44,005 nt of DNA from the IMG/VR virus record IMGVR_UViG_2579778573_000005. One strand, 5' to 3'. Source of the DNA: a virus. Lineage: Duplodnaviria; Heunggongvirae; Uroviricota; Caudoviricetes. The notes below the pieces were generated by a model. That model worked only from the letters and a program-made list of their open reading frames with translations, was not told where the DNA came from and ran no database searches. Below, in pieces: positions 27,166 to 29,606 of the stretch. Position 1 is the first letter of the stretch; every line of letters begins with the position of its first letter. The position numbers and the translations under genes are program-made.

Positions 27166-28305
27166 CTAAAAGTCCTTTGATTCTTGCTTGGTTAACAAAA
27201 TGACATAATTTTATTTAATGCCATAACAACTTAACAATATATCATAATATGATTATTATGGTGTAGCTTGTCGCATCTACGCTCCATTACAAACAGATGT
27301 AAGATATAACCTATATGTTTTAGCCAGCAAATTCGAAAGCATTCAAAGTAGTCTCATCGAACTCTCGAAACCCTATGTCTTCGGGTATAAAATATTTAAA
27401 TCCATTTGCATAATATCGACTCATGTTTATTATATTCTCCCCATTCACCATTAAGATTTGACATTATTTTCAACAATCGGTTATTGCAAGATTGAAATAT
27501 ATTTTTACTTGACACAATATTCCATGTAGCCCAGCGATTCGACTTACCCCCAACTATACGGACAATCTAAATTAAATCGATGATTTTTTGATACATTCTC
27601 CTCTCTCCATTACTTTATGTTTTTGTTCCCCAAAAATACCTTGCTCTCTAAAAAATAATTGTTCTTTAAGTTCAAAATCGAGATCTACATGAGCGTTAGA
27701 TACAAAGCTAATATGTTGAAATGTCTTTCCCCCCCCCATAACGGCATTGTTATCTAAACTATGTTACACAAATATAATATTACCCTTTCAACGTAATCCA
27801 AGAATAAGATTAATGCCATTATATATATCATAAATATGATATTTTGTATATTTTTATCATTTAGCCTTGATTGTACTAGGTGTACTCTCAACGAAGTAGG
27901 GAAAGTCTGTTCCTCGCTCACAGCTGCCCTTCAGTAAGCGAAAAAATGCCTACTCGGTGCCATATACAGCCATTGTTATTAACAGCAGGGAATAATTCAA
28001 AACTGAAATTAAATATCTACCTTTTACAGTAGAAATAGTTCCTCCAGGACACTATCCATTGCCGGGCACAATCACTCGGGGTATAACGATATAAAATATG
28101 TTCATGATAGTGCAGGTTCGTATATTAAGTTCAGCAGCGAAAACATGCCTTACAGGTTTCCGGTTTTGGGAGCGTCGTTACAGGATCCTGCGCATACCGT
28201 TCCCATCTGTTGAATTAAAGGTTTCACAGCCTTTGCCGATATCACCTTTTACCTTACCTGTGATGCGTTCAGTGCTGAAGTGGTCAACAAAAACTGGCCA
28301 CCGAG

Positions 28306-29124
28306 TTAGAGTTTTTTCCAGTATCGATTTTCCGATTCGTTTGGTGGTAACCCACCATTATATTCGTGCGGTCTTAGTGCGCTGTAATATCCAACGATAT
28401 AGTCCGTTATTGCGTGAGCTGCATCGCTGAAGCTTACATAGCCCGTCGCCGGCACCCATTCGTTCTTCAGACTCCTGAAGAAGCGCTCCATTGGGCTGTT
28501 ATCCCAGCAGTTTCCACGCCGACTCATACTCTGCCTGATCCGGTATCTCCACAGTAACTGCCGGAACTGCCTGCTCGTATAATGACTGCCTTGATCGCTG
28601 TGGAACATCACCCCGACGGGCTTACCACGGGTTTCCCATGCCATTTCCAGTGCTTTCATGGTAAGCCTGCTGTCCGGCGAGAACGACATGGCCCAGCCCA
28701 CTGGTTTTCTTGCGAACAGGTCGAGAACAACGGCGAGGTACGCCCAGCGCTTACCCGTCCAGATATAGGTCACATCACCGCACCACACCTGATTTGGCTC
28801 GGTCACGGCGAACTGCCGTTCAAGGTAGTTAGGGATAGCAACATGTTCATGACCACCACGTTTATACCGGTAAGTCGGCTGCTGACAGCTGACCAGCCCC
28901 AGCTCTTTCATGAGTCTGCCAGCAAGCCAGCGCCCCATCTGGTAGCCTCTCTGGGTTGCCATTGTGGCGATGCTTCTTGCTCCGGCAGAGCCGTGGCTGA
29001 TGCCATGCAGTTCAAGTACCTGGCTGCGTAATACAGCCCGTCTGCCGTCTGGCTTTTCAGGACGGTTTTTCCAGTATTTGTAGCTGCTGCGATGGACCCC
29101 GAACACATGGCAGAGAGTGGCCAC
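28306..29124 (-). CDS. IS911 transposase OrfB (expressed as OrfAB fusion by -1 frameshift)
   Basis: Track ORF 272 aa; integrase-core DDE region. Confidence 0.85.
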
Positions 29125-29150
29125 AGGATAACGCGCCCTGAGTTTCCCGA

Positions 29151-29453
29151 TTATCGAGAACTGTTCAGGGAGTCTGACATCAAGAGCGCGGTAGCCTTTT
29201 TTAATATTTCATTTTCCATTTCAATACGTTGTAGCTTTTTCCTGAGCTCACGGATTTCAATTTGTTCCGGGGTAATAGGGGAGGCTTTTGGTGTTTTTCC
29301 CTGCCGCTCATCACGTAATTGTTTCACCCATCGCGTCATTGTGGAAAGGCCGACATCCATAGCGCTGGCTGCATCTGCCACGGTGTAATTCTGGTCAACG
29401 ACCAGTTGAGCGGATTCGCGTTTAAACTCTGCGCTGAAATTTCTTTTTTTCAT
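29151..29453 (-). CDS. IS911 OrfA
   Basis: Begins [13 protein letters not shown] at ATG 29453 (track ORF extends to a GTG at 29489); leucine-zipper C-terminus. Confidence 0.85.
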
Positions 29454-29606
29454 TATGGCACCTGTGTTGTTCTGAGGTGAGCATATCACCTCTGTTCAGG
29501 TGGCCAAATTCAGTAAACCACTTCATGCTCAGCGTTGTTTACTGTAGCTCTCGGGACTGATTACAGACCGCGTCTTAAAAACCAATCCTTACTCTAAAGG
29601 GAATTC

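Follow-up and report, generated by a model that had tools for sequence, protein, structure and literature searches.

The closest described systems are IS911 and ISEc52. IS911, from Shigella dysenteriae, is the IS3-family model for copy-out/paste-in transposition, which proceeds via a circle whose joined ends are 3-4 bp apart and form a junction promoter (PMC9330008; PMC3299598). Its published products are OrfA, of 100 aa, and OrfAB, of 382 aa (PMC2909936). In IS911-type elements, an outward-facing -35 hexamer sits in the right inverted repeat (IRR) (PMC9330008). A GGAG motif is a known stimulator of IS911 frameshifting (PMC4066793), and a passage of PMC9333248 cites IS911 as able to target sequences that resemble its inverted repeats (IR-like sequences). 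For ISEc52, a copy in E. coli Nissle 1917 was described as a complete ISfinder match, and it went into and out of gnd during laboratory propagation (2026 preprint).

Here we analyzed the window, a stretch of virus DNA of 44,005 nucleotides, which carries an IS3-family element of exactly 1250 bp on its minus strand. We conclude, with a probability of roughly 0.93, that this is an intact copy of ISEc52, recently inserted at TGC inside the non-coding leader of lprI in a lambdoid prophage of an ST131-type E. coli. The feature is real, ordinary and of an already known kind, namely an intact small insertion sequence (IS) upstream of a prophage lipoprotein gene. It has little importance beyond annotation, where its label should be ISEc52 (IS911-like) and not IS911. 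The features of the element and its target are as follows.

28276..29525, minus strand: ISEc52 (IS911-like), complete IS3-family insertion sequence, 100% identical over 1250 bp to E. coli copies
28273..28275, no strand: TGC, left copy of the 3-bp target-site duplication (direct sequence reading; single TGC in empty-site genomes)
29526..29528, no strand: TGC, right copy of the 3-bp target-site duplication (sequence reading and empty site)
28276..28311, plus strand: right inverted repeat (IRR), exact match to the published IS911 IRR 36-mer TGAAGTGGTCAACAAAAACTGGCCACCGAGTTAGAG (PMC2909936)
29490..29525, minus strand: left inverted repeat (IRL), tip at 29525, reading TGAAGTGGTTTACTG... (an IS911-annotated copy reads TGAAGTGGCACACTG...)
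29151..29453, minus strand: orfA, 100 aa, helix-turn-helix regulator and N-terminal transposase part (Pfam HTH_Tnp_1, E=6e-14)
28306..29205, minus strand: orfB frame, -1 with respect to that of orfA, starting at the ATT that directly precedes the slippery site and ending at the stop codon (Pfam rve)
29196..29202, minus strand: A-AAA-AAG programmed -1 frameshift heptamer, phase checked in the orfA frame

Anatomy and identity of the element

On the left, TGC (28273-28275) is followed from 28276 by TGAAGTGGTCAAC..., and on the right ...AAACCACTTCA runs up to 29525 and is followed by TGC (29526-29528). In wider context, the left end (28273-28302) reads ...GTTCAG, then TGC, then TGAAGTGGTCAACAAAAACTGGCCACC..., and the right end (29499-29534) reads ...GGTGGCCAAATTCAGTAAACCACTTCA, then TGC, then TCAGCG.... 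The tips, TGAAGTGG... and ...CCACTTCA, are the TG...CA ends of the IS3 family, and the TGC on each side, present once when the site is empty, falls within the 3-4 bp target duplications of this family. The terminal inverted repeats are imperfect: their 27-nt arms (28276-28302 and 29499-29525) are 78% complementary. A degenerate inverted-repeat pattern occurred exactly twice in the 44-kb window and not once in 100 shuffles. The IRR holds an outward-facing TTGACC at 28287-28282 on the minus strand.

The coding part has the organization of the IS3 subgroup of the IS3 family, with two overlapping frames, orfB in -1 and a slippery heptamer. The rve domain lies in OrfB and the helix-turn-helix in OrfA. 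The orfB product matched the DDE (rve) catalytic domain (Pfam rve, E=1e-31, profile positions 2-102 of 102), an assignment made at the domain level by the Pfam profile; rve_3 and HTH_21 were matched as well. The heptamer is directly preceded by ATT in the orfB frame. By frame reconstruction, a predicted -1 slip at AAAAAAG (29202-29196) would give an uninterrupted OrfAB of 382 aa. RNA downstream of the heptamer folded with a minimum free energy of -36.9 kcal/mol (z = -0.57 against shuffles), a z-score that is uninformative on an IS911-type stimulator; IS positions 313-388, the stretch concerned, are identical to the IS911-labelled copy. Thus, the preliminary description of an intact 1250-bp element with inverted repeats, orfA/orfB and a heptamer at 29196-29202 was confirmed throughout.

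Over its 1250 bp, the element was 100% identical to many chromosomal and plasmid copies in E. coli that NCBI annotation labels 'IS3-like element ISEc52 family transposase'. It shows no difference from these labelled copies, and the insertion site alone is new among the genomes and collections searched. A near-full-length relative was present in 1,800 of the 5,426 complete E. coli genomes, and 940 records held a match of at least 99% identity. One of the 100% copies is in E. coli Nissle 1917. Near-identity to ISEc52 is thus given by the NCBI/PGAP-labelled copies and by the ISfinder match of a Nissle copy, and the name rests on RefSeq labels and one preprint's ISfinder result.

The element had been named IS911 at first. 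When it was compared with an IS911-annotated copy on Shigella sonnei pCS14-1, identity was 94.3% (71 differences in 1250), and because this copy is not the type sequence X17613, identity to the type may slightly exceed that value. Other copies annotated 'IS911 family' were also ~94% identical to the element. At the protein level, 367 of the 382 OrfAB residues (~96%; 15 substitutions) and 99 of the 100 OrfA residues were identical to those of the IS911-annotated copy. Under the ISfinder convention, isoforms are ≥95% identical in DNA and/or ≥98% identical in protein. The DNA value, obtained against the pCS14-1 copy and not against the type sequence, and the OrfAB value both lie below this convention, and the element is therefore ISEc52, a sister of IS911, and not IS911 itself. 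That it is IS911 or an IS911 isoform is highly improbable in our view, even though the 1250-bp length, the layout and the sizes of OrfA (100 aa) and OrfAB (382 aa) are equal, OrfA is nearly identical, and the 36-bp IRR and the adjacent 14 nt/primer O5 match the published IS911 oligonucleotides exactly (PMC2909936), at a place where the IS911-labelled comparison copy differs. Against these likenesses stand the 71 differences, three of them in the IRL, and the 15 OrfAB substitutions; in addition, all 100% copies are labelled ISEc52 by NCBI, the ~94% copies are labelled IS911, and ISfinder gives ISEc52 for a Nissle copy. Of the original name, the IS911-type and IS3-family part stood and IS911 in the strict sense did not; the correction to ISEc52 leaves the biology unchanged.

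With IS911 the element shares the 1250-bp length, 36-bp inverted repeats, TG...CA ends, OrfA of 100 aa, OrfAB of 382 aa made by a -1 shift on A-AAA-AAG, the ATT before the heptamer and the 3-bp duplication. Two differences fall in sites of possible function. First, the element has TTT at IRL positions 9-11, where the IS911-annotated copy has CAC, and this difference falls in the would-be -10 of the promoter at the circle junction. With 3 bp between the joined IRR and IRL, the sequence by itself predicts a junction promoter TTGACC-17 nt-TTTACT. Second, IS911 has a Shine-Dalgarno-like GGAG 8 nt before the heptamer, and the element has GGAA there, as do all ISEc52 copies; with GGAA replacing GGAG, ISEc52 may frameshift less efficiently than IS911. 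The GGAA lies at 29214-29217 on the minus strand (IS positions 309-312, with A for G at position 312). In IS911, GGAG also stimulates AUU initiation.

The insertion probably took place via the copy-out/paste-in route of IS911. If the element behaves as its homologue IS911 does, the OrfAB produced by -1 frameshifting would cleave one IS end and link it to the other, giving a figure-of-eight. Replication would then yield a circle in which IRR and IRL abut with 3-4 bp between them, forming a strong junction promoter. Such a circle would finally integrate at TGC with staggered cuts 3 bp apart.

Empty and occupied sites

To reconstruct the empty site, we fused 700 nt from the left, up to and including TGC, with the 700 nt that follow the second TGC on the right, and compared the product with 5,426 complete E. 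coli genomes. The reconstructed site was found in one piece, with 100% identity over 1400 nt, in many of them. At least 80% of the query was held by 402 of the 5,426 genomes, several of which are labelled O25b:H4-ST131. Strain SK1144 was collinear with the window, with 99.99% identity over 15.4 kb, and the sole structural difference was the IS plus one TGC. A 3-bp repeat arises by accident with a chance of 1 in 64, and the empty site is the deciding evidence. Since the empty site is unbroken and has a single TGC, the insertion was a simple one that duplicated 3 bp.

The right junction of the occupied site was found in none of the 5,426 complete E. coli genomes. The left-junction query was covered in three genomes, all with a different ISEc52 insertion located 649 bp further right, inside lprI. 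A 32-nt junction sequence had no match in the GTDB representative genomes and none in the JGI metagenomes. The absence of the occupied site from these three collections indicates that the insertion is recent and strain-specific. As a marker of this strain, it could serve for typing or for dating the lineage. Comparison with the empty site in related genomes had been proposed as a check and gave an unambiguous answer (402 genomes; SK1144 collinear); the simple, relatively recent transposition with TGC duplication that had been postulated agrees with the perfect empty site and with an occupied site seen nowhere else.

The lprI gene, its leader and the prophage neighbourhood

The insertion lies between the replication/antirepressor genes and the Q antiterminator of the lambdoid prophage. 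In an empty-site genome, the holin genes are followed by the Q antiterminator and by a set of accessory genes, among them one of the ImmA/IrrE family with its neighbour. Next come a hypothetical 232-aa gene on the minus strand, a gap of 1.19 kb and lprI on the plus strand, and then an ORF6N antirepressor-like gene, again on the minus strand, ahead of the replication genes and the cro/cI-like genes. Two further features belong to the lprI module.

29607..30530, plus strand: prophage lprI-family lipoprotein gene, intact, 307 aa (Pfam LprI PF07007; RefSeq WP_001237642.1)
27953..28272, plus strand: upstream part of the lprI module leader, severed from the gene by the IS (start of similarity in other prophages)

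RefSeq annotates WP_001237642.1 as 'lysozyme inhibitor LprI family protein', and the protein has a lipobox, LTGC, at residues 14-17. From the IS end at 29525 to the lprI ATG at 29607 there are 81 nt, the TGC counted. The preliminary description had placed the element 80 bp upstream of a DUF1311 lipoprotein gene, which was borne out by this distance, by the Pfam LprI match and by the lipobox. DUF1311 is the former name of PF07007.

For the AT-rich DNA to the left of the IS (~32% GC), it had been suggested that the insertion might have split a former occupant. This was not supported. The 1.19-kb gap contains no annotated CDS in empty-site genomes, the sole ORF across the insertion site is 69 aa long and has no PHROG match, and an Rfam search of the IS and of the intergenic DNA on its left side gave no match at E values up to 1. 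On these grounds, both a split gene and a split RNA were rejected. The 760 nt at 27166-27924 are 81% identical to the DNA that precedes 'ORF1', a moron located in the Z-region of phage P2-EC58 (AJ512683); in that record, a promoter and inverted repeats flanking the ORF1 cassette are annotated. The region of the 232-aa gene looks like a mobile moron cassette common to P2-like and lambdoid prophages. In prophages with other genes replacing the 232-aa moron (e.g., strain JX2), similarity starts at ~27953, 401 nt before the lprI ATG. The lprI gene therefore travels with a leader of ~400 nt, and the IS lies inside it. To judge from these similarities, the AT-rich DNA on the left has two components, one lying upstream of the divergently oriented 232-aa moron and the other forming the 5' portion of the lprI module.

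The IRL is the end of the IS that faces lprI, and transcription of the transposase runs away from this gene; the IRR, which holds the outward -35, is on the opposite side. Since the outward -35 lies in the far-side IRR, activation of lprI is unlikely. A strict consensus promoter scan from the IS to lprI detected nothing, and promoter-like sites were no commoner than in shuffles. In a relaxed scan from the IS interior to the ATG, the best site had 7 of 12 hexamer matches and was no credible promoter, and outward from the IRR the same scan found no -10 at the right spacing for a hybrid promoter. A hybrid or outward promoter at the IS ends was rejected on the basis of these scans. That the insertion switches on or boosts lprI via such a promoter thus appears very unlikely, although hybrid promoters can arise from IS3-family elements, an outward -35 is present in the IRR of IS911 (PMC9330008) and the IS lies just 81 nt from the ATG: it is the IRL and not the IRR that faces the gene, the transposase is read away from it, the strict scan was blank, the relaxed scan gave 7/12 at best, and the IRR side has no properly spaced -10. 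The suggestion that the 'outward-facing end' next to lprI may alter its expression was correct in that an IS end is adjacent to the gene; this end is the IRL, without an outward -35, and activation from it is unlikely.

Based on the facing IRL, the direction of the transposase and the promoter scans, the effect on lprI would more likely be neutral or a reduction than an activation. A candidate native lprI promoter with 8/12 matches (TGTTCA-16 nt-TATATT, ~28099-28126) lies in the upstream ~320 nt of the leader. If the native promoter is located there, more than 81 nt from the ATG, 1.25 kb of IS in antisense orientation now separate it from lprI. If so, the strain may be a natural lprI knock-down, which would be relevant to students of this prophage LprI-family lipoprotein.

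Several observations concern the surroundings of the insertion. Spacers with 32/32 matches to lprI, at 29607-29638 and 30081-30112 (loci L005 and L006), are present in type I-E CRISPR arrays of other E. coli genomes, and each protospacer has a correctly oriented ATG PAM. The spacer on the first 32 nt of the lprI ORF (29607-29638) was present in the ~120 genomes of the 90-95% identity band. The hypothetical 232-aa gene (26467-27165, minus strand) has a full-length phrog_5606 match. The P2-EC58 ORF1 'putative lysogenic protein' is 699 nt long, equal in length to the 232-aa gene; the likeness of the two loci was compared in the upstream DNA alone. A 55-aa ORF at 27572-27739 on the minus strand has a full-length match to phrog_7353 (E=3e-43) and is absent from the RefSeq annotation; it may represent either a genuine small gene of phages or an ORF that has been over-called time and again.

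A direct repeat of ~70-78 nt, ~90% identical, is present at 25930-26000 and 30606-30676. The first copy is the 3' end of a 201-aa gene (25399-26004), and the second lies just past the lprI stop codon. Between the two copies lie the 232-aa gene, the intergenic DNA and lprI, and the repeat may be the scar of a module exchange. Rfam matches above the gathering score were obtained on the minus strand for C4 antisense RNA (31545-31630), isrK (31655-31729) and the c4-a1b1 target (31690-31742). These C4/isrK matches (31545-31742) are located directly upstream of the ORF6N antirepressor-like gene (30705-31541), a control module of the P1 immI-like/Gifsy isrK type. Near the right end of the window, a cluster of tRNA-Gly(GCC), tRNA-Cys(GCA) and tRNA-Leu(TAA) at 43004-43305 on the minus strand probably represents the chromosomal surroundings of the prophage attachment site.

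Other insertions in the same prophage segment

Across strains, five other independent IS events were counted in the same segment of ~3.5 kb of the ST131-type prophage, six with that of the window. ISEc52 was inserted inside lprI in strains 23366, 23779 and 23556. The three ISEc52 copies in the segment share one orientation. To the right of the TGC in the window, GTTGTTTACTG matches IRL positions 5-15 at 10 of 11 nt, with an empirical P of ~0.04 against random window sites for this single site and a test picked post hoc; guidance by this IR-like match was rejected, the P value being too weak for one site.

It appears unlikely that the site is a selected or targeted hot spot, where repeated IS hits would be favored (e.g., by silencing lprI or the antirepressor, or crippling induction) or guided by IR-like DNA. 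Five other independent events within ~3.5 kb and three co-oriented ISEc52 copies would fit such a hot spot, as would the 10/11 match of GTTGTTTACTG and the targeting of IR-like DNA by IS911 that the passage of PMC9333248 cites. However, several of the strains come from a single German series and have about ten ISEc52 copies per strain, so that a high transposition rate in that lineage suffices, and AT-rich, non-essential prophage DNA is a permissive target. Moreover, the IR-like match was chosen after being noticed, and ~400 genomes keep the site empty. We likewise consider it improbable that the segment from lprI to the antirepressor is a recurrent IS target as a result of IR-like/AT-rich targeting or of selection. 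If it were, the copy in the window would be a regulatory lprI knock-down and not a neutral hit.

The copy of ISEc52 in the window is presumably active, to judge from its intactness, its 100% identity to many dispersed copies and the reported movement in Nissle. Identical copies at different sites of the same prophage in different strains point to an element that is currently mobile in ST131-type E. coli.

The individual events in the segment differ in their outcome. In strain 23366 (L002), an identical ISEc52 lies inside lprI at window positions 30174-30177, with a 4-bp CAAC duplication. In strain 22270 (L004), ISEc52 is inserted in the ORF6N gene, the adjacent 119 bp (31132-31250) are deleted and there is no duplication. 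These sister insertions disrupted coding sequences, with a 4-bp duplication or a 119-bp deletion, whereas the copy in the window is intergenic and has a clean 3-bp duplication. In addition, strains 20AR0479 (L007) and 23555 (L008) carry two IS1 insertions in the intergenic region upstream of lprI, at different positions and in different orientations.
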